Shown piece after piece: positions 1,409 to 40,339 of a stretch of DNA of 43,071 bases (its first letter is position 1; each line of letters starts with the position of its first letter). A program made the position numbers and the translations under genes. The DNA comes from Dehalococcoidia bacterium (GTDB taxonomy: Bacteria > Chloroflexota > Dehalococcoidia > Tepidiformales > Tepidiformaceae), in assembly GCA_031431695.1 (NCBI GenBank), contig JANPDX010000408.1, positions 1 to 43,071 of the forward strand, written 5' to 3'. The notes beneath the pieces were generated by a model that did no database searches, had not been told where the DNA came from, and saw only the letters and a list, made by a program, of their open reading frames with translations.

Positions 1409-2764
1409 TTAGAACATCTCGGCGCCGTCGGCCATTCTGGAGTCGTCGGCAGCGGGAGGCTGGGGCAGGTCCTGGGTCGGCTTTTTCTCGGTGGGATCTA
1501 GGATGCACTCGAGCGAGTCGATCAGTCGGAAGACGCCTCCATCGAAGGGCTGGAGGTGGAAGACGATGCGCACCAGGCAGTCTTTCGCTTTGAGCTCGCG
1601 CGCTTTGTCGTAGACGGCCTTGTCCTTGGTGGTGTGCCAGTTTTTGTCAACGCTCATGCCGTACACGGTCGGCTTGTTCGGTGTGGCTCTGCTTTGGATG
1701 GCGGTGATCTTGCCGAAGGCCATGGTTTCTTTGATCTTCATTTGCTCGGGCGTGAGCGTGGGCGCCGGCTCGGCTGGGGGTTGGTATGGAGGCGGGTTAG
1801 GCCTGGTTGTCGGCGGCCGTCGCGGGGCTTCTGGGTCGAGTCGGTAGTTCTCGTGCTGCTGCTGGTTGGGTGGTTCGCGTGGCGGTACGGGGAGGGTGCG
1901 TTCGCGCTGCTGGGGTTGTGTATAAGTTACTTGGTTGGCTGGTACTGTTTCGGGCTCTTGGCCGCCTATGTTTTCAGCGTAGGCCTGGAGCTCTTCGGTG
2001 AGATTGCGCCCAGGGGCCTGTAAGGCTCCTTGAGGGGCTCTCGGGGGCGGTTGGATGGGATCAACGGTGATCGTGCGGGCTGGGGCCTGTTGTGTGCCTG
2101 CTTTTTGTCCGTGGGCGAGCTGTGTGGCCTGCTTTTTTGGCCTCCAAGTCGTGTGGGGTGGTGGCAGGGGTCGATCTTTGCGTTTCCAGAGGGTTTTCCA
2201 CGTTCCGTCTTTGGGGATCCAGACTTCGAGCTCTTCGGCCCATTCTGGTAGCCATTGGCTGACGAAGGCGCGATCCCAGCACTTGGAGAACATCGTGAGG
2301 TCCTTGCAGCAGCGCACCAGGGCGTTCGATTTGCAGCTCTCCGCGGCGTCGTCGTAGGTCATTCCTTTGCCGCCGAAGTAGGCCTGTCCGCCGCGGGCCT
2401 GGCCTGCGAACTTGCCGTTCACGAAGAGCGCCCAGGTGTGGGACATCTGTGTGCCGATCATGGTGGGGTTGTCGATCGGGACGAGGGCCCAGCCGCCGGG
2501 TTTGAAGGCGGCGTTGAGGCGTTCCCGGTATTTCATTTCTGGCACGTAGATGAGTCCGTCGGGGCGGATCTCGATCATGCCGTTGTCGATGTCTGCGATG
2601 AGGATCTCGATCTGCTGGGCGGTGAGAGCGAGCGTGCCGGCAGCGTTGTAGAATTTTTCGGGCAGTCCAGGTCCCGGTGGGATGCTCGCGAGCTTGTTCG
2701 GGGGTTCTCCTTGCTGGTAGTTGTGCGGTTCTTCTGCGGATGGCATTGGCGCCTGTGGGCTCAT
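1409..2764 (-). CDS. Mgm101-family (Rad52-like) single-strand annealing protein with Pro/Gln-rich linker and extra C-terminal domain (451 aa)
   Basis: IRPDGLIYVPEMKYRERLNAAFKPGGWALVP, ESCKSNALVRCCKDLTMFSKCWDRAFVSQW and LWKRKDRP match the yeast Mgm101 core as remembered. ATG at 2764 overlaps the upstream stop (ATGA). The 110 codons upstream in track ORF 1409..3094 are Arg-rich shadow. Confidence 0.8.
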   Translation of the reverse strand: MSPQAPMPSAEEPHNYQQGEPPNKLASIPPGPGLPEKFYNAAGTLALTAQQIEILIADIDNGMIEIRPDGLIYVPEMKYRERLNAAFKPGGWALVPIDNPTMIGTQMSHTWALFVNGKFAGQARGGQAYFGGKGMTYDDAAESCKSNALVRCCKDLTMFSKCWDRAFVSQWLPEWAEELEVWIPKDGTWKTLWKRKDRPLPPPHTTWRPKKQATQLAHGQKAGTQQAPARTITVDPIQPPPRAPQGALQAPGRNLTEELQAYAENIGGQEPETVPANQVTYTQPQQRERTLPVPPREPPNQQQHENYRLDPEAPRRPPTTRPNPPPYQPPAEPAPTLTPEQMKIKETMAFGKITAIQSRATPNKPTVYGMSVDKNWHTTKDKAVYDKARELKAKDCLVRIVFHLQPFDGGVFRLIDSLECILDPTEKKPTQDLPQPPAADDSRMADGAEMF

Positions 2765-3357
2765 GTTGCTTCCTCGTCTGTGAAGGGGGTGATGCCGGCG
2801 AAGGGGTCTTCGTCGGGTTTGGGATTGGAGGCTCGGGCAACGATGTCGGTCGCTGCGGCTCTGGAGATGTCGCCGCTCTGGTACGCGGTCGTCAGCGCGC
2901 TGGCTTTCAGCCAGGTGGTGAGTTGGTGGGGGCCGAGTTGGTTCCAGAAGGAACGCTCCTCGATTTCCTCCCAGCCGTTGTGGGGTGCGTAGAATTGCTT
3001 CGGTGTGCACGTGCAGGGCTTCACCATCTGGACGACGCGATCGCCTTTTTGAAGGTAGCAGTCGATCCATCCGGTGTCGCCACAAGCGGCGCATTTGACG
3101 GGTCCAGCGCGGCTCGCCTCTTTCGGTGGGTTGAGAGCGCGTGCGGCCTCTGCCATGGCTGCGCGGATTGCATCGGGCTTTGGGACGTAGTGCCCCGCGT
3201 TTTTGAGGAGTTTCGTGATCCCCTTTTTGAGTAGTTCGGGATCGCTGTCGCCTAGGGCGTAGAAGAGGCCGTCGGCATATTCGGTGAGGCGGGGCACGCT
3301 CATGTGGTACAGCTTGCCGATCGGGGCCAGCAGGACCGCGAAGTCAGCTTTGTCCAT
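2761..3357 (-). CDS. putative replicative-helicase loader (G39P-like N-terminal domain plus zinc ribbon)
   Basis: The N-terminus DKADFAVLLAPIGKLYHMSVPRLTEYADGLFYALGDSDPELLKKGITKLLKNAGHYVPKPDAIRAAM follows the G39P loader/inhibitor pattern as remembered. It is followed by CAACGDTGWIDC....CTC. Its neighbours are the annealing-protein gene and a hypothetical ORF, with dnaB about 3.6 kb upstream in the same arm. Confidence 0.5.
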   Translation of the reverse strand: MDKADFAVLLAPIGKLYHMSVPRLTEYADGLFYALGDSDPELLKKGITKLLKNAGHYVPKPDAIRAAMAEAARALNPPKEASRAGPVKCAACGDTGWIDCYLQKGDRVVQMVKPCTCTPKQFYAPHNGWEEIEERSFWNQLGPHQLTTWLKASALTTAYQSGDISRAAATDIVARASNPKPDEDPFAGITPFTDEEAT

Positions 3358-3847
3358 GTGGGCCTCGCTGTGACGCCTGGCGAACCTGCTTTTCGTAGGA
3401 TCCGCCGGTGTTTTGCTGGCGTAGCAGCTTCATGACGTCGTAGAAGTCGAGGTCTTCGGAGCTGGCGGCCGCGTTCTTGATGGCCTGGCCGGTGACTCCC
3501 TGGCGAAGCAGGTCGGCGATCGCGTTGGCTTTTGAAAACTTGCTCGGCGCGGCCATGTGGTTGAAGTAGAAGGTCAATCCATAGGCGGGTCCTTTCATGG
3601 TGTTCCCCCCGGGGTTTTTGGAGTCGTCGGAGGGATGGGTGATGGCGTAGACGCTTTCGAGGATTCGTCGCGAGGTATTGAGCAGAAAGTCGGAGACTCC
3701 GGGGTTTTTCATCTTGGTGTCGGAGGCCCAGATGTAGAGCTGCTTGGCGATGTGCTTCAGTTGCGCGTGCGCGTCCTTCACCGAGAGAGACTTTGGGGGC
3801 GGTGGTGGGACGGCAGGCGGGTTGTCGAACAGTGGCGGCTGGTCCAC
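3344..3847 (-). CDS. hypothetical protein (167 aa, Pro-rich N-terminus)
   Basis: GTG at 3847 lies 5 nt after AAGGAG. The upstream part of track ORF 3344..4048 overlaps the ParB-like gene and is discounted. Confidence 0.6.
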   Translation of the reverse strand: MDQPPLFDNPPAVPPPPPKSLSVKDAHAQLKHIAKQLYIWASDTKMKNPGVSDFLLNTSRRILESVYAITHPSDDSKNPGGNTMKGPAYGLTFYFNHMAAPSKFSKANAIADLLRQGVTGQAIKNAAASSEDLDFYDVMKLLRQQNTGGSYEKQVRQASQRGPHGQS

Positions 3848-3879
3848 TTGTTCTCCTTGGAACTGACGGGGGTGAGAGT

Positions 3880-5478
3880 CTACTTCTTTTTCTTTGCTTC
3901 GCGGAGTTTCTCCCAGCTTTTCGGTTCCGGGAGTGCGGCCGCGGCGGCCTTCTCGAGCTCGGCCCACTTCATCCGGCAGAGCTGGGCGACGTGCTTCGTG
4001 TTGTCGATCGCTTTGAGCGCAACGTGTGACTGGTAGCTGGTAAGCCACTTTATGAGGTTGCGGTGCATGGCGGGCCAGGCGAGTTGGGCTGTGTTGATGA
4101 GATGTTTGTGCTTCGGAACTGCGACCTCGTTCTTGTTGCCCACGTTGTCGACTCCGTAACAGCCAACGTGGAAGGCGAGGTCGATGATCTGCCAGGCTTC
4201 GGGCTCGGTCATGTCCTTGTGCATGAAGCAGTTTTCGTGCTTTGCGATCTCGTCGCGGACGGACTGTTCCATGAGTGAGGCGCGGCGGGCGTCGAGCTGC
4301 TCCTCGCGGTCCTCGAGCATCTTTTCGGCCTGCTTTGGCGTGGGGCTCTTGGGTGCAGGCGCCTTCTCCGGCTTCTCGCCCTTGGCCTTCTTCCTTTTCG
4401 TGGTGACGTCGTATTTGTAGAGCTGGTCGTACTCGCCCATGAAGTGGTAGGTGACTGTGCCAGCGAGGGGGCCGTCGATCCAGAGGCCTTGGATGACTGC
4501 GGTGTGGTGGGATTGTTTTTTGAGATTGGGCCGGTGGACGAGCAGGACGGGAGGTGTGTGTTTGTCGTCGTGGGCGCTGGTGGAGAACAGGACGCCGGCA
4601 GGGTGTTTCTCCAGGAAGGTGGGGAGCAGGCGATCAGCGAAGGCGTGCGCTTTCCTTGTCCAGCAGTCCGGGTCGAGGCAGCGGTCCTTTTTCGGGAGCT
4701 TCTTGTTACCAGCGTCGGTGATGTCGTCGAACAGGCCGGGCGTGCAGCTGGCGCGTTTCGTGCAGTTGAGGCAGGCGCCCGCTTTGGGGTCGAGGGCTTC
4801 GTCATCAAGCTTCCACGGTGCGCCGGAAAGGAATCTGGTGTGTTCGGCAATCGCGTGGTCGAGGCTTTCGAAGGACACATTGTGGAAGCCGTGTTTGCCG
4901 AATTCCTTCATGAAGGTGATTTGCGAGGTGGGCTCAAGCATGGCGATGCGCTCCAGCGAAGCGGCACTCCACCGTGGCATCTTTGACTTGTCGCTGAGCC
5001 ATTCTTTTTTCAGATCGGGGTGCAGGCGGTCGATGCGTGCCCGGCGAGCGACCCAGCCCAGGTCTTTGCCGAGTTTCTCAGCGATCTCTTTCGTTCCCCA
5101 GCCGATGGTTGTGAGGGAGTTCACGCCGGCGGATTCTTCCAGGACGGAGAGGTCTTCGCGTTGGAGGTTTTCCGTGACAGTGATGGCGATTGCGGCGTTT
5201 TCGTCGAGGGGTGTGATGATGGCGGCGATGGTTGCAAGGCCGGCCATGTGGGTTGCTCGCCAGCGTCGTTCGCCGGCGACGAGCTCGTACTGGTAGTGGT
5301 CTTTGGGGTCGGTGATTGCGCGCACTACTACGGGGCTGATGAGGCCCATGGACTTGATCGAATCGGCAAGCTGCTGGAGGTGAGGATTTTTGGGGTCGAT
5401 GCGCCTCGGGTTGTGTGGTGAAGGTCGGATGGAGTCGATCTTGAGTTCGACTGCGGGGGTTGCTGCGGTGGGGCTCAT
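3880..5478 (-). CDS. ParB-like nuclease-domain protein with long C-terminal extension (532 aa)
   Basis: IRPSPHNPRR, LADSIKSMGLISPVVVR and YELVAGERRWRA are classic ParB/Srx N-terminal motifs. A Cys cluster CLNCTKRASC..CLDPDC follows. GAGGAA precedes the ATG. Confidence 0.85.
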   Translation of the reverse strand: MSPTAATPAVELKIDSIRPSPHNPRRIDPKNPHLQQLADSIKSMGLISPVVVRAITDPKDHYQYELVAGERRWRATHMAGLATIAAIITPLDENAAIAITVTENLQREDLSVLEESAGVNSLTTIGWGTKEIAEKLGKDLGWVARRARIDRLHPDLKKEWLSDKSKMPRWSAASLERIAMLEPTSQITFMKEFGKHGFHNVSFESLDHAIAEHTRFLSGAPWKLDDEALDPKAGACLNCTKRASCTPGLFDDITDAGNKKLPKKDRCLDPDCWTRKAHAFADRLLPTFLEKHPAGVLFSTSAHDDKHTPPVLLVHRPNLKKQSHHTAVIQGLWIDGPLAGTVTYHFMGEYDQLYKYDVTTKRKKAKGEKPEKAPAPKSPTPKQAEKMLEDREEQLDARRASLMEQSVRDEIAKHENCFMHKDMTEPEAWQIIDLAFHVGCYGVDNVGNKNEVAVPKHKHLINTAQLAWPAMHRNLIKWLTSYQSHVALKAIDNTKHVAQLCRMKWAELEKAAAAALPEPKSWEKLREAKKKK

Positions 5479-5488
5479 GCGGGGTTCC

Positions 5489-6205
5489 TCAATGAAGGGG
5501 GTAGACGATCACGGCTTGCAGGCGATCCCAGCATTTGCGGCATTCGCCGCACTTCGGGGATTCGCTGGACTTGTAGGCGGGGCAGCTGGTGCGTGCGTCG
5601 TGGTCGAACTGTTTGGCGTACTGGACGGCTGAGTAGGTTACTCCGCTTGGGTTGGTGCGATGTGGCAGGGAATCTTTGTGAGGCTCGTGGGCCGCTCCTG
5701 GCGGCAGGATGAGGTGGCGGGTGAGACGTACGGTGACGTTCTGGGGAATGATCACTCCGGTGTCGATCGCGGCGCGGAGGATGTTCTCATCCTGCGTCGA
5801 GATCCAGTGTTTGTAGTTGGGCGTCAACATGCCGACGGCGAGGATTCGCTTCAGCATGGGCAGGTCAACCAGGTCGCCCGAGTCGAACCAGCGCATCGTG
5901 TCGAGCCGGCCGAGGTCGTACAGGCGAGCGAGAAGCTTGTGCATGTTGCAGGCCCAGAGGTCGGGATCTTTTGCGTAGCAGCGGAGTCGCCTGCGTTGGG
6001 CGTTGAGGGAATTCGGGAAGTTCATGAAGCCTTTGCGGCAGTAGCAGTGGGAGCAGACCGAGTGCGGGATCTTGAGGTAAATCTTGCGTGCAGCGCAGAC
6101 GGCGATCGGAATTCCCCAGGAGAGCCCGGGCATTTTCGAATTAGACGACAGCCCCCCCACCGCTCTCCACTCGGGGATCAGGTCGGCAATATCTCGAAAG
6201 TTCAT
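5489..6205 (-). CDS. Cys-cluster protein resembling the phage GP88 family (238 aa)
   Basis: SWGIPIAVC....CSHCYCRKGF...RWFDSGDL...TPNYKHWISTQ and the C-terminal CPAYKSSESPKCGECRKC fit my recollection of the GP88 (PF17338) pattern. Unverified. An alternative start at ATG 6133 would remove the 65-nt overlap with 6141..6488. Confidence 0.45.
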   Translation of the reverse strand: MNFRDIADLIPEWRAVGGLSSNSKMPGLSWGIPIAVCAARKIYLKIPHSVCSHCYCRKGFMNFPNSLNAQRRRLRCYAKDPDLWACNMHKLLARLYDLGRLDTMRWFDSGDLVDLPMLKRILAVGMLTPNYKHWISTQDENILRAAIDTGVIIPQNVTVRLTRHLILPPGAAHEPHKDSLPHRTNPSGVTYSAVQYAKQFDHDARTSCPAYKSSESPKCGECRKCWDRLQAVIVYPLH

Positions 6206-32753: not shown

Positions 32754-34172
32754 ATGAGTTGGAATGTGGGCGGATTCAGTCGGGAGCAGATGGCGCGCGG
32801 CGAGGGTGGATCGACCGCGACGGACAGCGATCGCCTTGAGGAGCAGCTTCGCCGGCGCCGCGCGACTCCCTATCAGGCCTGGCGTGCGCGCATGGAGCGC
32901 AATGCTCCCGGGTCTGCGGATGCTTCCGAGCAGCGGCAGGGCACGCGTGATCGGGCTGCGGCCGTTGAGGAGGAGCGCCAGAGGGTTGAGCATGAGAAGC
33001 AGTTGCGTGATGAGGAGAAGAAGGGGAAGTGGGACGAGGAGGTCAAAAAGGGTCGCGCTTACGCTGACGATTACATGAAGCAGGGGCTGGCGGATCAGGT
33101 GTCGCTGGAGTACACGGATCCGGAGTCTGTGCGCGAAGCGGTGATGATGGGTGGGGTCGGCGCTGGTGGGGAGCGGATCGATCCGACTCCTGACGACGGG
33201 TACGAGGGGTATCGGGCTGAGCAGCCGACGAGTCAAACGGATTCGTTTGGAAACGTGAAGCAGTATCCAGATGAGCCGCAGACTGGTGATTACAAGGCCG
33301 CGGATGGTTCCTATCGCGGTAAGGATGGTGCGGACGGCAAGCGGTTGGTGCGTGAGGACAAGTCGCAGTGGGGCAAGACTCCTCAGACTGCCAGTGTGAA
33401 GATGTTGGGAAGTCACGGGCAGATGCTGGTGGACAAGGCGATGGAGCTGGGGCGGAAGTACGGATTCAAGGTCGAGATGCCTCCGGGGTATCAGGGGCAG
33501 GCGCAGGTTGCGGAGCTGGAGAAGAACGACAAGCTGCGCATGAAGGCCGCTGAGGTGAAGAAGGCGGCCGATGTGAAGCAGAAGAAGATCGAGGATGGTT
33601 GGAACGAGGTGCAGGATGAGGCTGATTCGCTCGGGTATGGGGAGCGGGCGTCGGGTCTTCGCGCGCTGTATCCGGATAAGCCTCAGCAGGCGCATGCGGA
33701 GATGCGTCGTGATGCGGTGAAGGCGTTGGCGACGAACGAGAAGAAGGCGAAGGAGTTCGAGAAGAAATTTGAGGCGAGCCAGAAGAGTATCGATGCCGAG
33801 CTGCAGAAGTTGTCGTTCATGCAGAAGGACGCGGCCGCGATGGATAAATTCAAGGAGACTTCGAACGGCAAGAAGCCCTCTGAGTCGTATGCTCGTGCGA
33901 TGGCCAAGGCGGAAGTTCAGGCTGAGCGCGTGAAGCAGTTGGTGAAGAAGCATCGCCGGATGGAGGAGGTCGTGCAGGACTATCAGGACTACCAGGGCCG
34001 GCGTGAGGAGCAGCGGCGTGGCGGTGAGCAGGGGGGCCGTGGTGGGGAGGTTGGCGATGATCGCTTTGCGCCTTACGCTCCTGGCAAGGCCCCTGAGCAT
34101 GGTAGTGAGCAGGATCAGCTCGATGTTGAGGATTCGGTGAAGGATGCGGCTGCGGAGTACGATGCGAAGTAG
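32754..34172 (+). CDS. highly charged, coiled-coil-like virion or internal protein (472 aa)
   Basis: Track ORF, Lys/Glu/Arg/Asp-rich. Placed by position. Confidence 0.65.
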   Translation: MSWNVGGFSREQMARGEGGSTATDSDRLEEQLRRRRATPYQAWRARMERNAPGSADASEQRQGTRDRAAAVEEERQRVEHEKQLRDEEKKGKWDEEVKKGRAYADDYMKQGLADQVSLEYTDPESVREAVMMGGVGAGGERIDPTPDDGYEGYRAEQPTSQTDSFGNVKQYPDEPQTGDYKAADGSYRGKDGADGKRLVREDKSQWGKTPQTASVKMLGSHGQMLVDKAMELGRKYGFKVEMPPGYQGQAQVAELEKNDKLRMKAAEVKKAADVKQKKIEDGWNEVQDEADSLGYGERASGLRALYPDKPQQAHAEMRRDAVKALATNEKKAKEFEKKFEASQKSIDAELQKLSFMQKDAAAMDKFKETSNGKKPSESYARAMAKAEVQAERVKQLVKKHRRMEEVVQDYQDYQGRREEQRRGGEQGGRGGEVGDDRFAPYAPGKAPEHGSEQDQLDVEDSVKDAAAEYDAK

Positions 34173-34250
34173 GGGTCTGGTGGTCCCTCGCGGGTATGAC
34201 GAGCGTGGATTCAAGACCTACAATCGAGCGGCTGACTAACGACTAGGGAG

Positions 34251-37200
34251 GTGCCCGTGGATGGCGTGAATGTTGTTCAGGATCCTGAGCGCCGCAAGCG
34301 GGGTATTCTGGCGCTGGCTGCGCGGAAGTACATGGCGCGCCGCGGCAAGCGGGTGGGCGCTTCGAGTGAGAGCATGCTCCGGCATTTTGAGGAATCGGGC
34401 GACACTAGCTGGTTGGCTGGTGGAGGCGAGGACGGGCAGGCGGCTGCGGAGGCGAGCGATGTGGATCCTGATCTTTTTCACTTCATGAGCGGCGGGCAGG
34501 GCCAGCAGAAGAGGAATCTCAATCTCGGGAAGCGTTCGACGCCTGAAGAGATGGATGGTGGCTCTGCGAAGAATGTTTTTCGTGAGCTGATGACTGGTGG
34601 TGAGCAACGCGATCCGAATGCTGGCGTGCTGTCGCGCGCGTGGAGCGGGGTGAAGTCGGGACAGAAGGCGGCTTCGGGTGCTGCTGGTCGGGCTTTCGGT
34701 GCTCCCCAGATGGCGCTCTGGGAGGGCTCGGAGGAGGCCGGGAAGGATATCGCGGAGGCTCCCGGTGTTCTGGGGAAGGTGGGGGCGGCGGCGATGTCTG
34801 GGGCGAAGTTGTTGGCAAAGGCTCCCGGGCGGATGCTGTCGTATGCGACTGGCAGTGATCAGGAGAACGAGGCTCGCCAGGAGCACCAGAAGGACCTGCG
34901 TACGAAGCATGGGGTTGGGCCTGATGGGTACGGCGCGATCGCGTGGATGCAGGAGCATTTCACTCCGGCGACTTTCAAGGCGATGGAGTGGATGGGGGGC
35001 GGCGATGCGTCTCACGGGATCCGGACGATTGTTGAAGATCCGTTGAATGTCGCTGGCGGTGAGCTTGTTGAAGGCGCAAAGATGGGCGCTGGGGCGATGC
35101 GGAGGTTGACCGCGAAGTTTGGTGAGAAGGCGGCGATGCAGGTTACGGAGGAGGTGTCTCGCGCGATCGCGAAGTCGAGTGCGAAGAAGATGGGTCGCGG
35201 GGGTCGTGAGGTCGCGGTGGATCTTTTTGATCGGTGGGTTGATCGGAATCCGCATGGGTCGCAGGAGCCACGCGTTCCGCTTGGGCATCGGGATGGAGTT
35301 CCGATGGCGGGTGTGCGTCCCGAGGAAATCCCCATGGCTGAGATGGCGGGTGAGCCGCCGATGGCGCAGATGCCGGGTAGGGAGATTGCGCGGCAGAAGG
35401 CTCGTGCGCTGTCTCCGAATGCGCGGCAGTTTGTTCGGGAGCGTGGCCCTGGTCGGAATCGGGTGACGTCGGCGGGAGGTGTCCCGAGTCGTCTTGAGAT
35501 CGGGCAGGCGCGGTCCCGGTATCGTGGGTTGCCTTCTCGCGGCGAGATGGGTCCTTCCCGTCCTCGGGAGTCGTTCCCTGGCATGTCTGATCATCGCGGG
35601 CGTCGTCTTCCGCCTCCGGTTGATGTTGTTGGCGAATCAGGCCGTGGCTTTCAGTCTGCGCAGGGTCGCCAGCTGGGTGATGTGATGGATCACGGTGGAG
35701 AGGCTGTTGATCAGCGCACGCTTGGCGAGGTGCTGGATCAGGGCAAGCCGAGGCCGAAGAGGAAGGCTGTGGCGAGTCGCAAGCGCGATCAGAAGATGCG
35801 TGGGCGTAATGCGATGTCGAGGAAGCAGTACGAGCGGCGCGCGAATGAGCCGAAGCCGCCGGCGAGGGGTGGTCGCGACCAGGAGCTCGGTGATCTCATG
35901 GACGGTGGTGGCCGTGATCTCGCTCGTAGGAACCAGTCGAGCTGGGAGAATCGTGGGCCGGGTGATCGTGTTCCTGTGAATGAGCCGAAGCCTTCAAAGA
36001 AGTCGGTGCCGCAGACCAGGGCTCGTGGTGGTCGTGATGCGGAGCTTGGTGAGTTGATGGACGGTGGTGGCCGTGATCTCGCTCGTAGGAACCAGTCGAG
36101 CTGGGAGAATCGTGGGATTGAGGCGCCTCAGCGTGTGAATGAGCCGAAACCTTCGAAGAAGCAGTTGCCGCAGACGAAGGCTGGCGGTGCTGACGCTCCC
36201 AAGGGGAAGAAGGTGACGACGGCGGCTGGTCGGAAGCCGGGGGCGATCAAGGAGATCAGGCTTGCCGCGAAGAATGAGGCGAAGTATCCGCATGGGCGCT
36301 TGAGCGAGGTTGAGGAGCCGAGCCGGGTTTATGGGTCTGTGATGGAAGAGGGGCTGGCGCTGAAGAGGCAGTTGGCGTCTGTCGAGTCGGACATCAAGGG
36401 GTTTGAGAAGGCGACGAAGTCTCGGGATCTTGTCAGTCGCGATCGCCTTTTGAAGCAGCGGGGTCACATCCTGAATCGGCTTGAGGAGGTTCGCGCGGAG
36501 TGGAGGCGCGGTGGTAAGCCTGCTGCGAAGAAGCCGAAGGGTGAGGTGGGCTCGAAGAAGAAATATCCGAAGGATGAGTGGACGAAGACTCAGGAGTGGC
36601 GCCGGAAGGAAGGGCATTCGACTCCCGATGAGAAGATCGGGCGCGAGACTCCAGATATTCCGATGGAGGATGGCCACGAAGACCTTGGGCGTGTTCCTAT
36701 TGTGAAGACCAAGGAGGGCGTGAAGCGCTTTCCTCCAGGGAGTGATATTCCGGAATGGGAGAGGCCGCGCCTGCCGAAGGAGGTCGTGAAGGCCAAGCGG
36801 GCGTTGAGGCAGTTGGAGGAGCGCGCGGCCAGGAGTAATCATCCGAAGAACTGGCATCCGCAGATTGAGAACGCGAAGCGTGTGCTGTCGGATGCTCTTG
36901 GACGGAAGGATGAGCCGTTGTTGTTTGGCGGCGGAGAAGATGTGTCGGATGCGATTAATTCACCGTCCATGGTGAGCGTTGGCGAGGACGCGATGTTCGA
37001 TCGCCGGCAGGCGAAGCAGTCCGGTGTCGATATGTGGGAGGATCTGAACGCCGGGATGAAGCATACGAAGCTGGAGCCTGAGGCTGTTGTTGAGGCTTCT
37101 AGCGGGGTGGATTTCAAGGGTGGGAAGCCGCAGGCCCGGTGGGAGCCGAGTGGTGAGGGTAGGCAGATTTCTCACGGCGAGCGGCAGGTGCAGGCTCTTG

Positions 37201-37424
37201 CGAAGCAGGTCGCTGAGGGTGGTGGTCGGTCGGTCGAGGCGCAGCTCGCTGACGAGCTCGTGAAGCTCTACGATTCTTCCAGACCGGATTACATCAGGAA
37301 TCTGTGGCATCGGATTGAGGCCGATCTGGGGGAGGAGGCTGCTGCCCGGGTTCGTGGCCGGATGGAGAACCTCATCAAGGATCGGGCGCGCGCGCGTGGT
37401 CGTGGGGGGCCGGGCCCTCTGTAG
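34251..37424 (+). CDS. large charged, repeat-containing virion or ejection-type protein (1057 aa)
   Basis: GTG lies after GGGAGG. Low-complexity charged sequence with internal 45/53-aa repeats. The function is inferred from position only. Confidence 0.65.
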   Translation: MPVDGVNVVQDPERRKRGILALAARKYMARRGKRVGASSESMLRHFEESGDTSWLAGGGEDGQAAAEASDVDPDLFHFMSGGQGQQKRNLNLGKRSTPEEMDGGSAKNVFRELMTGGEQRDPNAGVLSRAWSGVKSGQKAASGAAGRAFGAPQMALWEGSEEAGKDIAEAPGVLGKVGAAAMSGAKLLAKAPGRMLSYATGSDQENEARQEHQKDLRTKHGVGPDGYGAIAWMQEHFTPATFKAMEWMGGGDASHGIRTIVEDPLNVAGGELVEGAKMGAGAMRRLTAKFGEKAAMQVTEEVSRAIAKSSAKKMGRGGREVAVDLFDRWVDRNPHGSQEPRVPLGHRDGVPMAGVRPEEIPMAEMAGEPPMAQMPGREIARQKARALSPNARQFVRERGPGRNRVTSAGGVPSRLEIGQARSRYRGLPSRGEMGPSRPRESFPGMSDHRGRRLPPPVDVVGESGRGFQSAQGRQLGDVMDHGGEAVDQRTLGEVLDQGKPRPKRKAVASRKRDQKMRGRNAMSRKQYERRANEPKPPARGGRDQELGDLMDGGGRDLARRNQSSWENRGPGDRVPVNEPKPSKKSVPQTRARGGRDAELGELMDGGGRDLARRNQSSWENRGIEAPQRVNEPKPSKKQLPQTKAGGADAPKGKKVTTAAGRKPGAIKEIRLAAKNEAKYPHGRLSEVEEPSRVYGSVMEEGLALKRQLASVESDIKGFEKATKSRDLVSRDRLLKQRGHILNRLEEVRAEWRRGGKPAAKKPKGEVGSKKKYPKDEWTKTQEWRRKEGHSTPDEKIGRETPDIPMEDGHEDLGRVPIVKTKEGVKRFPPGSDIPEWERPRLPKEVVKAKRALRQLEERAARSNHPKNWHPQIENAKRVLSDALGRKDEPLLFGGGEDVSDAINSPSMVSVGEDAMFDRRQAKQSGVDMWEDLNAGMKHTKLEPEAVVEASSGVDFKGGKPQARWEPSGEGRQISHGERQVQALAKQVAEGGGRSVEAQLADELVKLYDSSRPDYIRNLWHRIEADLGEEAAARVRGRMENLIKDRARARGRGGPGPL
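35844..36190 (+). repeat. tandem coding repeat (135- and 159-bp units plus a partial third)
   Basis: NEPKP..ARGGRD.ELG.LMDGGGRDLARRNQSSWENRG is repeated. A 60-nt block is identical at 35898-35957 and 36057-36116. Confidence 0.85.
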
Positions 37425-37648
37425 CCGCCCCTGCAAAGGGCCAGCAGGCGGCGGGGGGTGGAAACGGTCCTGGGGGGCGCGGAACGCAGGCTGGGGGCGG
37501 TGGCACGCAGGCTGGGGGCCGTCGTGGCAAGGGTCTGTACGCGCCAACCAAGTATGAGAAGTGGCGGGGGGGCAACTTCCTCGCTTCCCGGGAAGAGCAT
37601 TTTCAGTCGATCGCTGGTGGCAAGGTTGGTGCCAGGATCGAGTCTTCT

Positions 37649-40339
37649 GTGCTCCAGCGTGAGGTTCGTACCGGCCGGGGCAAGCAGGAAGGTCTGGTGC
37701 GGCCTGAGAAGGCGCTGGCTGGCAGGAAGACGATGGCGTTCGTGACGAAGGTGTTCGGGGAGGCTCGGGGCGCGGCGATCGCGCGGCAGTTGCGCGGATT
37801 GCCTGTGATCGGCGGTGCGTTTGGAGTCAGGCCGGCGCGTGTGGCGGCGCTGGTGGATGCGGCCGAGACGATTCTTCGCGTCAAGAACGGGAATCCGATC
37901 TTCGGCGCGAAGCCGTTGGGCGCGAAGCATCTCACGGTGAATCAGGCGAAGGCCGCGTGGTTCGATCTCGCGACGCATGAGCAGGATGCCGTGCTGGCTT
38001 GGGTGAAGCGGCGCGAGGAGCTGCACAAGCTCTACGGTGTGGTCGGGCACCAGCAGGGGTACTTTCACCACATCTTTGAGCAGTTGGATGCGGTGGGTGG
38101 TGACGCCGGCATCATGTTGCGGGATAAGTTGGCGACGCCGCGGATGAAGCGCAAGGGGGCCGAGGGGTACAAGAAGGATTTCGCGAAGGGGTGGTCGGCT
38201 TACGAGGAGGCGTTGTCTTCCGAGAAGGCGTGGAACGATCACGTTCACGACATCGTAAATGTGGCGGGGAGGGACTGGCCTGCGAAAGCGGTGCTCCCGA
38301 AGGATTGGGTGAGAATTCCCGCGAAGATCGGGGAGGTCGAGGTGTTGGGCGCGGGCAAGATCATTCCGAAGGCGTTTTACGACAAGTGGGTGGAGGTCGC
38401 TGGCGCCGGCGCCGAGATGGGGAAGGCGATGAAGCTCATGAAGAACGTCGGCAATTTTGTGAAAACCGTTGTGTTGTCGAGCGTGAAGACATTGCTGCGG
38501 AACGTGATCGGTGGCTCCGCTCAGTACGGCATTTATTCGATGGGCCAGTTCTTCAAGGGGCTCGTTGGAATGGCGCGCGGTGAAACGGGCGCGGTGCGCG
38601 GGATGATGGCTCCTGCGCGGGGCCTTCTCGAGTCGCTTCTCCCGGCGAGCTGGGATGCGGTGCCCACTTGGGCGTTGGGTACTGGTGTCACGGGTGATGT
38701 CCAGGTGACGGGTGCGTTGAAGAAGATTACCGATGCGACGTTGGTGGCCTACAGTTCGATTGAGAATTACTTCAAGCGTGCGTTGACGATCAGTGAGTTT
38801 CGGGCTCGTGGGTTGAGTCCTTACGGGGAGCTGTCGGGTGGGAAGATGTTGAGGGCTGGCGACTTGATGGCGGAGTCGCGGCAGCTGAACAAGTCGATTC
38901 GTCGCGTCACGGACGCTTTCGCTTTCGACTACCAGGCGATCCATCCTTCGCTCCGGAAGTTCCGTGACTCGCCGCTGTCTTGGCCTCTGATGATGTTCCC
39001 GGTCTATCCGACGAAGTTTGCGCGGATGACGACGCGATTGCTGGGCGCCTTCAATCCTCTGGAGCGGATGTCTGCGGTGGAGCGTTCGGCGCGGATGATG
39101 ACGTTTGGGACGATGATGGGTGCTGGGTACTACCTGTGGCGTCGGCCGGGGGGGATTGCGGGTCTGCCGGCGGCCAAGGGATTCGATCGCCAGGGCGATA
39201 ACGATGGCGTGCGAGTTTCGTCGGACGAGAAGAGCGAGAGTTTCCTCTCCACGGAGGATTTGCCGGTGTTCGGCATGATGGAGTGGATCCTCAAGGGGCG
39301 CATGGGCGAGGCCGTCGATCGCAGCGTTGGTGGCGTTGGCGCTCCTGGGCCTGCGATCCAGTTCGCGATGATCCTGGGCGCTTCGGATCCTGCGGAGGTG
39401 AGTGGCAAGCTCGGTACGATGGCGGGGACGCTTTTGACGCCGTTTGGCCGCATGACGCGTGACGTGAAGAAGTACCAGCGGGCGCGCGATGTGGAGTCCA
39501 TGCGGAAGGCGAACAAGGAGAAGCCCGACAGTTTCTCTTCCGAGGAGATTAATGCGCGCGTGGAGCGGAAGCCGAATTCCTTCTTGGAGGGAGCCGGGGA
39601 ATTCCTTCCCTTTTCAGGGACGCGGAAGAAGGGCGATCGGCTTCCTATGTTGGATGCGGACAAGCAGTTGCTCGAGGGCGCGACTGGCATCAAGGTCACG
39701 AAGGTCGATCGGCGGGCGCGCGCGGCGAGCTGGATGAGCGCGGTGAGGGGGGAGATGAAGACTGCGCGCGATGCGGATGACAAGGATCGCGTCGAGGAGT
39801 TGGAAGAGAAGATGGAGACCGGCAAGGCGTGGTTCAATCGCGAGCGTCATGCGATCGACCTGGTGAAGGTTGATGGGAAGAAGGTGGATTTCGACAAGAT
39901 CAGCGAGCGGGAGCGGGCTGTGATTGAGCGTCTTCCTGAGCGTGCGCAGGCGCGGGTAAGGGCCGTGTTGGATGGTGACACCTTCGAGCTTATGGATGGG
40001 ACCAAGGTGAGGCTGAAAGGGGTTGATGCTCCCGAGGTGGCGCATGAGGGCAAGGGGAAGGCGAAGTTCTGGAGCGCGGAGGCGACTGCTGCTCTTGAGG
40101 CGATGGTGAAGGACAAGCCGATCTACCTCGTGGGCCGGGAGGACGAGAAGGACGAGTACGGTCGGCGCCTGGCGTACGTGTATGTTGGGGATGGGGTCCT
40201 GGTGCAGCGCGAGCTCGTGAGGCATGGGCACGGCAAGGCGCTCTTGCATTACGAATTTCTTTTCGAGAAGGAGTTCGCGGATCTGGAGCGCGCGGCCGCG
40301 AAGCGTGGCGAGGGGCTTTGGCAGGAGGAGAGTGAGTGA
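37649..40339 (+). CDS. large virion-associated protein with C-terminal staphylococcal-nuclease domain (896 aa from GTG 37649; frame is open upstream to 37319)
   Basis: Track ORF. The same frame is coding-like from about 37409 but has no ATG/GTG/TTG before 37649. The SNase motifs are at the C-terminus. Confidence 0.7.
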   Translation: MLQREVRTGRGKQEGLVRPEKALAGRKTMAFVTKVFGEARGAAIARQLRGLPVIGGAFGVRPARVAALVDAAETILRVKNGNPIFGAKPLGAKHLTVNQAKAAWFDLATHEQDAVLAWVKRREELHKLYGVVGHQQGYFHHIFEQLDAVGGDAGIMLRDKLATPRMKRKGAEGYKKDFAKGWSAYEEALSSEKAWNDHVHDIVNVAGRDWPAKAVLPKDWVRIPAKIGEVEVLGAGKIIPKAFYDKWVEVAGAGAEMGKAMKLMKNVGNFVKTVVLSSVKTLLRNVIGGSAQYGIYSMGQFFKGLVGMARGETGAVRGMMAPARGLLESLLPASWDAVPTWALGTGVTGDVQVTGALKKITDATLVAYSSIENYFKRALTISEFRARGLSPYGELSGGKMLRAGDLMAESRQLNKSIRRVTDAFAFDYQAIHPSLRKFRDSPLSWPLMMFPVYPTKFARMTTRLLGAFNPLERMSAVERSARMMTFGTMMGAGYYLWRRPGGIAGLPAAKGFDRQGDNDGVRVSSDEKSESFLSTEDLPVFGMMEWILKGRMGEAVDRSVGGVGAPGPAIQFAMILGASDPAEVSGKLGTMAGTLLTPFGRMTRDVKKYQRARDVESMRKANKEKPDSFSSEEINARVERKPNSFLEGAGEFLPFSGTRKKGDRLPMLDADKQLLEGATGIKVTKVDRRARAASWMSAVRGEMKTARDADDKDRVEELEEKMETGKAWFNRERHAIDLVKVDGKKVDFDKISERERAVIERLPERAQARVRAVLDGDTFELMDGTKVRLKGVDAPEVAHEGKGKAKFWSAEATAALEAMVKDKPIYLVGREDEKDEYGRRLAYVYVGDGVLVQRELVRHGHGKALLHYEFLFEKEFADLERAAAKRGEGLWQEESE
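39950..40330 (+). other. SNase/thermonuclease-like domain within 37649..40339
   Basis: VLDGDTFEL...VRLKGVDAPE...DEYGRRLAYVYV...LVRHGHGKA...AAKRGEGLW matches the SNase pattern (DGDT, vRL.GiDaPE, D.yGR.La, G.A, Ak....GlW). Confidence 0.75.

Follow-up and report, generated by a model that had tools for sequence, protein, structure and literature searches.

A probable programmed -1 ribosomal frameshift between two large open reading frames of a phage-like contig

How is a long coding sequence translated when no start codon lies within reach of its beginning? The question is raised by contig JANPDX010000408.1 (assembly GCA_031431695.1), an entire NCBI contig of 43,071 nucleotides (nt) with about 61% G+C, and this whole stretch of DNA is referred to here as the window. 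Its plus strand carries an open reading frame of 1057 amino acids (aa), ORF1, which ends at TAG 37422-24, and a second one, ORF2, in a frame displaced by -1 from that of ORF1; this frame, open from 37319, reads ...GKGLYAPTKYEKWRGGNFLASREEHFQSIAGGKVGARIESS... across the junction. In the ORF2 frame, an ATG, GTG or TTG first occurs as GTG 37649, which has no more than AGGA 11 nt upstream in place of a good Shine–Dalgarno sequence. An initial annotation of the window had pointed out both the early opening of the -1 frame and the long distance to this poorly supported start, and both are present in the sequence; the next ATG, which it placed at 37727, lies at 37733-35, and it overlooked GTG 37697, which is preceded by AGGAAGG and whose context recurs in the closest relative, as residues KQE.LV are conserved there (L001, introduced below). 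All three frames are open over 37425-37556, so that an open frame alone carries little weight at the junction. Here, we present comparative evidence that programmed -1 ribosomal frameshifting most likely fuses ORF1 and ORF2 into a product of about 2029 aa (ORF1 residues 1-1056 followed by 973 residues), and that the slip probably takes place exactly on the heptamer G_GGC_CCU at 37412-18. A frameshift fusion of about 2000 aa was among the explanations first offered for this locus; the fusion is favoured by the comparative evidence, and the details of the mechanism need revision. The features concerned, all on the plus strand, are as follows.

34251-37424, + strand: ORF1, the zero-frame product of 1057 aa, with its stop codon TAG at 37422-24
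37404-37409, + strand: G6 run, zero-frame GGG GGG preceded by T, an earlier slip candidate
37412-37418, + strand: proposed slippery heptamer G_GGC_CCU (CCG GGC CCU, Pro-Gly-Pro), an in-frame X_XXY_YYZ motif
37418-40339, + strand: the -1 reading frame after the shift, 973 codons and a stop
37418-37534, + strand: Gly/Ala/Pro-rich transframe linker in the -1 frame, SVAAPAKGQQAAGGGNGPGGRGTQAGGGGTQAGGRRGKG, with disorder predicted
37419-37424, + strand: spacer CUGUAG, which contains the ORF1 stop TAG (37422-24) two codons after the heptamer
37425-37454, + strand: GC-rich stem-loop from an RNAalifold consensus, a candidate frameshift stimulator
37535-37648, + strand: conserved, structured N-terminal part of the ORF2 module, LYAPTKYEKWRGGNFLASREEHFQSIAGGKVGARIESS, 5' of every canonical start
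37649-37735, + strand: in-frame canonical starts GTG 37649, GTG 37697 and ATG 37733
40004-40324, + strand: staphylococcal-nuclease (SNase) domain with which the fusion ends (Pfam PF00565, E 1.2e-14); it covers residues 896-1002 when numbered on a translation that begins at 37319

In the proposed mechanism, a ribosome translating ORF1 would arrive at CCG GGC CCU (37410-18) with its P site on GGC and its A site on CCU, at which point the GC-rich hairpin at 37425-54, 6 nt downstream, would resist unwinding at the mRNA entry site. A fraction of the ribosomes would slip one base back, with tRNA-Gly and tRNA-Pro re-pairing on GGG and CCC. Shifted ribosomes would then translate the Gly/Ala/Pro linker, a conserved and mostly helical module and finally a staphylococcal-type nuclease domain, and unshifted ribosomes would terminate two codons later at TAG, releasing the 1057-aa ORF1 protein. 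The outcome would be two proteins with a common N-terminal body, made at a fixed ratio as in retroviral Gag/Gag-Pol. We infer that ribosomes slip here, and also which of two nearby sites they would use and how efficiently; the two frames, the want of a canonical start for the second, the coding character and conservation of the stretch without a start, the heptamer and hairpin of three genomes and the fused orthologue are seen in the sequences themselves.

The stretch 5' of GTG 37649 is protein-coding, as its composition had suggested from the outset, and four independent grounds establish this. In a codon log-likelihood scan, trained on the genes of the window itself, the ORF2 frame takes over from that of ORF1 at about 37385-37430; no non-coding gap intervenes, and the codon score of the ORF2 frame stays positive through 37648. 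The closest relative of ORF2 is P0002 on the Logan contig L001, with 52% identity; the BLASTP alignment to the L001 protein begins at the L of LYAPTKYE (37535) with 51% identity (E 4e-24), and the identity to P0002 in the start-less stretch equals that over the rest of the protein. In a multiple alignment, the motif [F/L]G.xEE...A..G....G... at 37571-37640 is common to ten homologues, eight of which are large single proteins that carry the motif internally, and several HMMER alignments reach upstream of the residue that matches GTG 37649. An AlphaFold2 model, with an overall predicted local distance difference test score (pLDDT) of 64, leaves the Gly-rich residues 1-38 disordered (pLDDT < 40) and predicts helices at residues 42-48, 55-63 and 65-97 (pLDDT 73-86), so that confident helices span 37550-37720; the modelled helix 65-97 crosses both GTG 37649 (residue 75) and GTG 37697 (residue 91). 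According to this model, starting at any of 37649, 37697 or 37733 would cut or remove predicted helices of the module.

These observations bear directly on the existing gene models. The NCBI record gives ORF2 as 896 aa from GTG 37649, against 868 aa from ATG 37733 in the Logan gene call; because the helices and the motif reach upstream of 37649 and 37733, both starts cut into a folded, conserved segment. Both automatic annotations thus truncate ORF2 and drop its conserved, structured N-terminal segment, and neither reveals that the nuclease-bearing module is probably made solely as a fusion to ORF1. Recognition of the frameshift would correct the gene model in at least three phage genomes.

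Between the slip site and the conserved segment lies the linker, whose composition is reached by none of 6194 background -1-frame windows. The Ala-Ala-Pro encoded in the -1 frame directly 3' of the slip site is common to the window and L001 (SVAAPA versus YRAAPG). The linker also contains an in-frame tandem repeat of 2.5 copies of 21 nt (37470-37521, GTQAGGG units), which fits coding sequence because the period is a multiple of three.

Comparison with relatives shows that the frame relation is not peculiar to the window. Related loci were recovered with their DNA as L001 (Logan SRR22000202), L007 (ENA ERZ27258503) and the pair L008/L009 (ENA ERZ27247796 and Logan ERR3094281), together with the more distant L002, L004 and L005. 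L001 encodes an ORF1 homologue of 1331 aa (1698-5693), with its ORF2 homologue in the -1 frame. L007 holds a partial ORF1 (1-2064), and its ORF2, P0004, is 37% identical to that of the window; the -1 frame is open from 1722, and P0004 is called from ATG 2109, within the conserved motif. The window, L001 and L007 have in common a split with the second part in the -1 frame, and three samples and different assemblers agree on this relation.

All three genomes also carry a slippery heptamer at the junction. Every in-frame X_XXY_YYZ heptamer was catalogued where the -1 frame is open, and G_GGC_CCU at 37412-18 is the sole one in the ORF1/ORF2 overlap of the window. L007 has exactly one, G_GGU_UUU at 1848-54 (CCG GGU UUU, Pro-Gly-Phe), and L001 has A_AAC_CCU at 5447-53 (CCA AAC CCU, Pro-Asn-Pro) as well as a second heptamer near the stop. 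The latter, G_GGG_GGC at 5681-5687, lies 4 nt 5' of the ORF1 stop with GGAGGA 12 nt further 5', and may be a second shift-prone site or a chance occurrence. A Pro codon precedes each of the three proposed heptamers and supplies, as its last base, the X of the motif. A BLASTP alignment of ...GRGGPGPL in the window with ...AEGAPNPI in L001 puts the two heptamers in identical columns, and the distance from a conserved ORF1 helix to the heptamer is 16, 15 and 19 residues in the window, L001 and L007, respectively. In-frame heptamers occur in these contigs at a background rate of only 0.0024-0.0036 per codon, so that the chance of both relatives carrying one within +/-3 codons of the window position is about 5e-4. 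Among all in-frame heptamers of each contig, the proposed sites have the longest -1 ORF (973, 1021 and 796 codons in the window, L001 and L007), and they rank first for downstream stability together with -1 ORF length, out of 16, 15 and 8 heptamers in the same order.

What is known of slippage in Escherichia coli makes the motif plausible. C_CC.U is among just six shift-prone tetramers in this species (Sharma et al. 2014, PMC4066793), and 61 of the 64 heptamers respond to a strong pseudoknot (PMC4066793). The three inactive heptamers include A_AAC_CCA and G_GGC_CCA (PMC4066793), which differ from the natural A_AAC_CCU and G_GGC_CCU in the last base alone; strikingly, U closes both natural sites. 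A conserved enhancer upstream of the heptamers was not found.

A conserved RNA structure is predicted after the proposed slip site. RNAalifold, applied to the three sites, finds a common stem that begins 6-7 nt after the heptamer and whose 5' arm opens with an invariant GCCGC; the consensus comprises 11 pairs, three of which show compensatory change, with both sides altered and still paired. In the window, the stem-loop consists of a 5' arm at 37425-34, a loop at 37435-43 and a 3' arm at 37444-54, with one mismatch and one bulge, and it would act as the stimulator of the frameshift. The 50 nt after the heptamer are the most stable of those that follow any in-frame heptamer of the same contig, at -24.3, -21.2 and -31.7 kcal/mol in the window, L001 and L007. 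When set against shuffled sequence, the L007 hairpin (10 + 4 base pairs) is the sole clear excess (z -2.49), and the structure is accordingly supported by position and conservation, not by energy. A search of Rfam gave no match at gathering scores nor at E<=10.

The initial annotation had proposed a different stimulator, an H-type pseudoknot formed by two interleaved helices of 6 base pairs, 37413-18 with 37437-42 and 37424-29 with 37447-52. Both helices exist with perfect pairing, and such an interleaved pair is uncommon, being found at four loci in 43 kb and in 38 of 2000 dinucleotide shuffles (1.9%) of the local 101 nt. The pseudoknot is nevertheless rejected as the stimulator, as the 5' arm of its first helix (37413-18) is covered by the heptamer and its spacer from the G6 run is only 3 nt; the second helix is an alternative register of the hairpin that is conserved in the relatives. 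Plain minimum free energy folding over the G run gave nothing above shuffles. The same annotation had recommended checking whether the G run and the helices co-vary in related genomes: the G run has no counterpart there, and the hairpin does show covariation, in the three compensatory pairs given above.

In L001 and L007, the -1 frame itself bears the mark of selection. Near the end of ORF1 in each of these genomes, an in-frame GTG lies 10 nt after GGAGG (at 5669 and 1962, respectively), and the -1 frame between the heptamer and this GTG has 72 stop-free codons in L001 and 36 in L007. Gene callers use these GTGs or could do so; were they the genuine starts, the -1 frame 5' of them ought to be plain off-frame sequence, which it is not. 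Gly, Ala and Pro account for 49 and 29 of these codons, and Arg, Cys and Trp for one and two. Gly+Ala+Pro content of that level is reached by none of the background -1-frame windows (0/3525 in L001 and 0/2528 in L007). When the ORF1-frame peptide was held fixed and synonymous codons were redrawn from the contig's own usage, the observed -1 composition was obtained in 0/5000 resamplings for L001 and in 0.08-1.3% for L007, with a stop-free frame in 4% and 24%, respectively. On the 5' side of the heptamers, the -1 frame either is closed or looks like any off-frame sequence, with much Cys, Trp and Arg. The change of the -1 frame into a selected linker falls exactly at the heptamer, so that the ribosomes that read it have to come from ORF1.

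The ORF1 frame in these two relatives continues for 70-80 codons past the heptamer (5454-5693 in L001 and 1855-2064 in L007). The first parts of the two tails are alike (EPL..R..P.GR.K), the last 33 codons of L007 ORF1 score as non-coding, and the window has no such tail. The idea that L001 shifts early and that the rest of its ORF1 is pure junk turned out to be half right, as the ORF1 frame scores better there and resembles the L007 tail. The overlaps in L001 and L007 seem to code in two frames.

Other relatives encode the two parts as one polypeptide. L008/L009 keep the gene order of the window, including a homologue of the 385-aa gene that follows ORF2, and carry one gene of 1251 aa, P0005, where the window has two ORFs. 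The N-terminal 400 residues of P0005 (64-413) match a profile of the ORF1 N-terminus (E 1.4e-7 within the retrieved set; BLAST 4e-4), and its C-terminal 700 residues correspond to the ORF2 module; a fused gene in related phages is what the initial annotation had recommended looking for. In L002, L004 and L005, the module is found at the end of larger ORFs of up to 2672 aa, and a scan of metagenomes yielded just distant fused relatives, L004-L006. Across 1.84 billion representative proteins, searched exhaustively with HMMER, the module nearly always forms the C-terminal part of proteins of 1000-5700 aa. Given the fused relatives and the large homologues, a single polypeptide is the ancestral and usual state.

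Three further searches added little to this set. With ORF1 and the family of the downstream 385-aa gene as queries, no usable relatives were found in IMG/VR or in GTDB genomes; a protein search with the conceptual 2029-aa fusion returned nothing, low-complexity words having probably swamped the candidate list; and a profile search (A2) gave two already-known proteins and nothing further. The 2672-aa ORF of L004 (62-8080) is perhaps cut at the contig end; the ORF2-like module forms its last third, and an upstream stretch, ...HNHPKGDPTPSG..., is reminiscent of the RadC-like JAB domain that Pfam finds in the homologue P0009.

Several points weigh against a programmed frameshift at this heptamer. 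The transframe product is a prediction from assembled DNA contigs, and just three split genomes are available; the C-terminal alignment of ORF1 is of low identity, and the L007 heptamer is offset by 3-4 codons. The window hairpin is no more stable than shuffles (z -0.68) and that of L001 is marginal (z -1.39). The efficient heptamers of E. coli do not include any that have CCC in the A-site half, and the close variants A_AAC_CCA and G_GGC_CCA gave no activity in that species (PMC4066793). For 70-80 codons past the heptamer of L001 and L007, the codon score still favours the ORF1 frame, so that these regions would have to be dual-coding, and independent initiation of ORF2 at the GTGs near the end of ORF1 is possible; such initiation may coexist with frameshifting. 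Finally, the G6 run lies 3 nt 5' of the heptamer, close enough for either to be the slip site in the window.

This last point leads to an alternative, in our estimation an unlikely one, in which the same fusion is produced by a slip on the G6 run at 37404-09, either through a single P-site tRNA-Gly slipping on G_GGG or through RNA polymerase adding one G. The run had been singled out in the initial annotation, and it does lie in the overlap. As the run is read GGG GGG preceded by T, it is not in the register of an X_XXY_YYZ heptamer, and with no counterpart at the homologous point of L001 or L007 it was rejected as a conserved slip site. It is a possible secondary site for a P-site slip on G_GGG: the zero-frame GGG at 37407-09 is preceded by G, so that tRNA-Gly would re-pair perfectly one base back, and herpesvirus thymidine kinase offers a documented precedent for frameshifting at a low level on runs of G (review PMC5009743). 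L001 likewise has its in-frame G_GGG_GGC just 5' of the ORF1 stop, and L007 has G_GGG at 1936. However, the G runs are at non-homologous positions in the three genomes and are common in Gly-rich linkers, and a slip at the run of L001 or L007 would leave the selected Gly/Ala/Pro stretch 5' of it untranslated. The spacing at G6 would also be unusual, with the conserved hairpin 15 nt after the run and the pseudoknot proposed earlier 3 nt after it, and six G residues are short for transcriptional slippage. Four of the 18 runs of at least six G in the window fall in 37404-37572, within 170 nt. The products of the two sites would differ by three residues: the predicted junction peptide is ...GRGGPGPSVAAPAK... 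for a slip on G_GGC_CCU (GRGGPGP/SVAAPAK) and ...GRGGAGPSVAAPAK... for a slip on the G run (GRGG/AGPSV).

That ORF1 and ORF2 are separate genes, translated with no recoding, is improbable. ORF2 would then start at GTG 5669 in L001 and GTG 1962 in L007, where GGAGG, 10 nt and GTG occur in the ORF2 frame near the switch in codon score, and in the window either at a codon outside the canonical set, for example CTG 37535, with which the conserved region begins, or at the internal GTG 37697 or ATG 37733, both with plausible ribosome-binding sites upstream, to give a shortened protein. Yet the window has no ATG, GTG or TTG for 110 codons that include a structured segment conserved in the family, and CTG 37535 has no usable ribosome-binding site; an unusual start codon, which had also been suggested at first, is not needed and is unlikely. 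Typical genes of the window have AGGAGG 5-7 nt upstream of the start, not 10, and GGAGG arises trivially from the GGA GGN codons of the linkers. Separate genes would moreover leave unexplained both the co-located heptamers and hairpins and the stop-free Gly/Ala/Pro linker in the -1 frame, which resampling does not reproduce.

Very improbable is a one-base indel that splits a single gene, whether an assembly or sequencing error in a G homopolymer, as had been considered in the initial annotation, or a genuine mutation that inactivates the gene in a defective genome. G runs crowd the junction, and G7 in place of G6 would put both ORFs in frame; G5 would put GTG 37396 in the ORF2 frame, and the resulting GTG GTC GTG GGG GCC GGG CCC..., or MVVGAGPSV, is loosely like MVPAGGPVE of L001. 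Over 36900-38100, though, the same run assembled independently by Logan, at 13x word depth, gives an identical sequence, which also tells against a phase-variable tract, and L001 and L007, from other samples and assemblers, show the same -1 relation. G5 would also remove the ORF1 stop and add a tail of 45 codons in a frame that scores as non-coding, and an inactivating mutation would not be expected to coincide with a heptamer-plus-hairpin cassette common to relatives. A homologous start at the GTGGT shared by window position 37396 and L001 position 5669, given G5, was rejected because neither the distance to the G run nor that to TAG differs by a multiple of three and because G5 destroys the ORF1 stop. 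Read-through of TAG is dismissed, as the zero frame after it scores as non-coding and TAG ends other genes of the window.

With programmed frameshifting as the preferred explanation, the nature of the two joined parts can be considered. Arg, Lys and Glu are abundant in ORF1. Conservation is seen in an N-terminal domain and in a C-terminal motif, DYIRNLW...ARARGRGGPGPL, that ends at the stop codon. It has no family match in Pfam or PHROG and no recognisable effector domain. An in-frame tandem repeat of 2.0 copies of 159 nt (82% identical) at 35868-36189 duplicates a 53-aa unit within ORF1 (...GGRD.ELG.LMDGGGRDLARRNQSSWENRG...NEPKPSKK...). The predicted fusion has one recognisable enzymatic domain, SNase, and would be a single polypeptide only if the frameshift occurs.

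The ORF2 module is of the kind that usually stands at the C-terminus of phage 'large polyvalent proteins'. Three giant homologues carry SNF2 helicase, ddrB-ParB, RadC-JAB or Sno helicase-C domains, which are typical components of polyvalent proteins (Iyer et al. 2017). A fold search of the PDB gave no match for the module, and Foldseek against BFVD matched it to C-terminal pieces of phage proteins with E values of 5e-8 to 1e-3, at TM-scores that are low (0.2-0.36); the annotations of these matches are large polyvalent, ART-PolyVal, Zeta-toxin, MuF-C, RelA/SpoT and helicase. Polyvalent proteins are argued to travel inside the capsid and to enter the host by injection together with the DNA (Iyer et al. 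2017, PMC5512222), and on account of the position of the gene between putative capsid and tail-fibre genes and of the polyvalent-type module, ORF1 and its fusion would by analogy most likely be packaged in the virion and injected. The likeness to polyvalent proteins (PMC5512222) lies in homology of the module by both fold and sequence and in the location of the gene among virion genes; the difference is that the polypeptide here is split and would be joined only by recoding, and that ORF1 is without an effector domain. The same paper describes polyvalent proteins as single polypeptides and does not mention frameshifting (PMC5512222), and a full-text literature search for polyvalent proteins together with frameshifting found nothing relevant.

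Frameshifted gene pairs of several kinds offer points of comparison. In retroviruses, the upstream ORF product, Gag, is made in excess, and a minority of ribosomes slips -1 on a heptamer followed by a structure (U_UUU_UUA with its stem-loop in HIV-1) to make Gag-Pol. The window locus is similar in that the fusion would put an enzyme domain on a common N-terminal body by means of an X_XXY_YYZ motif and a structure; in L001 and L007, with the slip site 70-80 codons before the zero-frame stop, the dual-coding overlap is like that of p6/p6*. It differs in belonging to a bacterial DNA virus, in the GC-rich heptamers, in the SNase domain on a polyvalent-type module and in having no homology to Gag or Pol. 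In phage lambda, which has counterparts among other long-tailed phages in this respect, the tail assembly chaperones G and GT (about 140 and 280 aa) are encoded just upstream of the tape-measure gene, and the ratio of the short to the long product matters. As with G/GT, a probable -1 shift is conserved within a phage structural block, its position being kept and its slippery sequence varying. In contrast to G/GT, the ORFs here are of 1057 and about 970 aa, lie between capsid and tail-fibre genes and are unrelated in sequence; ORF1 and ORF2 have no match to a tape-measure or chaperone family and no such gene context, and do not belong with G/GT.

The signal itself is of the bacterial type known from IS3 OrfA/OrfAB and E. 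coli dnaX, which likewise combine a heptamer, a spacer of 5-7 nt, a GC-rich hairpin or pseudoknot and a zero-frame stop nearby. The stop of the window lies inside the spacer, as in IS3 constructs (PMC4066793). IS3 and dnaX use motifs of the A_AAA_AAG type, often with a Shine–Dalgarno-like enhancer upstream, whereas the A-site tetramer here is C_CCU or U_UUU. The G7 and G8 mutants of herpesvirus thymidine kinase (PMC5009743) resemble the window in having a G homopolymer near the change of frame, where a low level of slippage can bring back the downstream frame; in their case a mutant allele is rescued adventitiously, whereas here the frame relation and the heptamer-hairpin cassette are conserved.

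Taken as a whole, it is about an even chance that in a lineage of uncultured freshwater and sediment phages, a polyvalent virion protein once made as one polypeptide has become a Gag/Gag-Pol-like pair by way of a conserved -1 frameshift on unusual GC-rich heptamers of the C_CCU type. The type of signal and its mechanism are well known; the gene class and the phage lineage are places in which it has not been described before. If the reading is correct, the frameshift sets the ratio of an abundant ORF1 body protein to a rare fusion of about 215 kDa that carries a membrane-active-looking helical module and a nuclease, which would suggest that the ratio of ORF1 to fusion matters for the packaging of this cargo. 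It would also be the first recoding signal described in a polyvalent-protein gene and would extend -1 frameshifting in phages past tail chaperones, capsid genes and transposases to large, injected polyvalent proteins. A_AAC_CCU and G_GGC_CCU would be natural examples of slippery sites, and the two GC-rich C_CCU heptamers, with natural covariation of GGG and AAA in the first triplet, would serve as test cases for the rules of slippage in high-GC hosts.

The wider content of the window is phage-like and includes an Mgm101-type recombinase and a single-stranded DNA-binding protein. No nucleotide or protein match to the region was found among 50,697 GenBank phages by megablast or tblastn, and a sequence identical to the window is present in a freshwater-sediment metagenome run. 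A block of genes on the plus strand from 27 kb to 42 kb is densely packed; within it, ORF1 and ORF2 are flanked by a 472-aa gene on one side and by the 385-aa gene and tail-fibre genes on the other, and they are located between a putative capsid gene and tail-fibre genes, among which a 306-aa ORF at 41494 matches tail-fibre proteins. One relative holds homologues of both the 472-aa and the 385-aa genes.

The sole sigma-70-like promoter match within 33900-38200 is at 34196-34224 (ATGACG-17-TACAAT, 9/12), in the 79-nt gap immediately 5' of ORF1. No promoter-like or terminator-like site was found between ORF1 and ORF2, and the position of the promoter match upstream of ORF1 is consistent with a single transcription unit of ORF1 and ORF2.

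On the plus strand, G exceeds C over the whole window, with a GC skew of +0.05 to +0.45. This holds even over 1-13 kb, although the long ORFs of that part, the Mgm101-like gene at 1409-3094 among them, are on the minus strand; the excess of G therefore goes with the plus strand as such and does not follow the coding strand. The AT skew shifts at about 13-15 kb, the same place as the switch in gene direction. A gene for an Mgm101-type single-strand annealing protein lies opposite to the structural genes in the window (1409-3094, minus strand), in L007 (13350-14244, minus strand) and in L008 (18280-19756, minus strand), a feature common to this phage group, and a RusA gene is also found there in L007 and L008.

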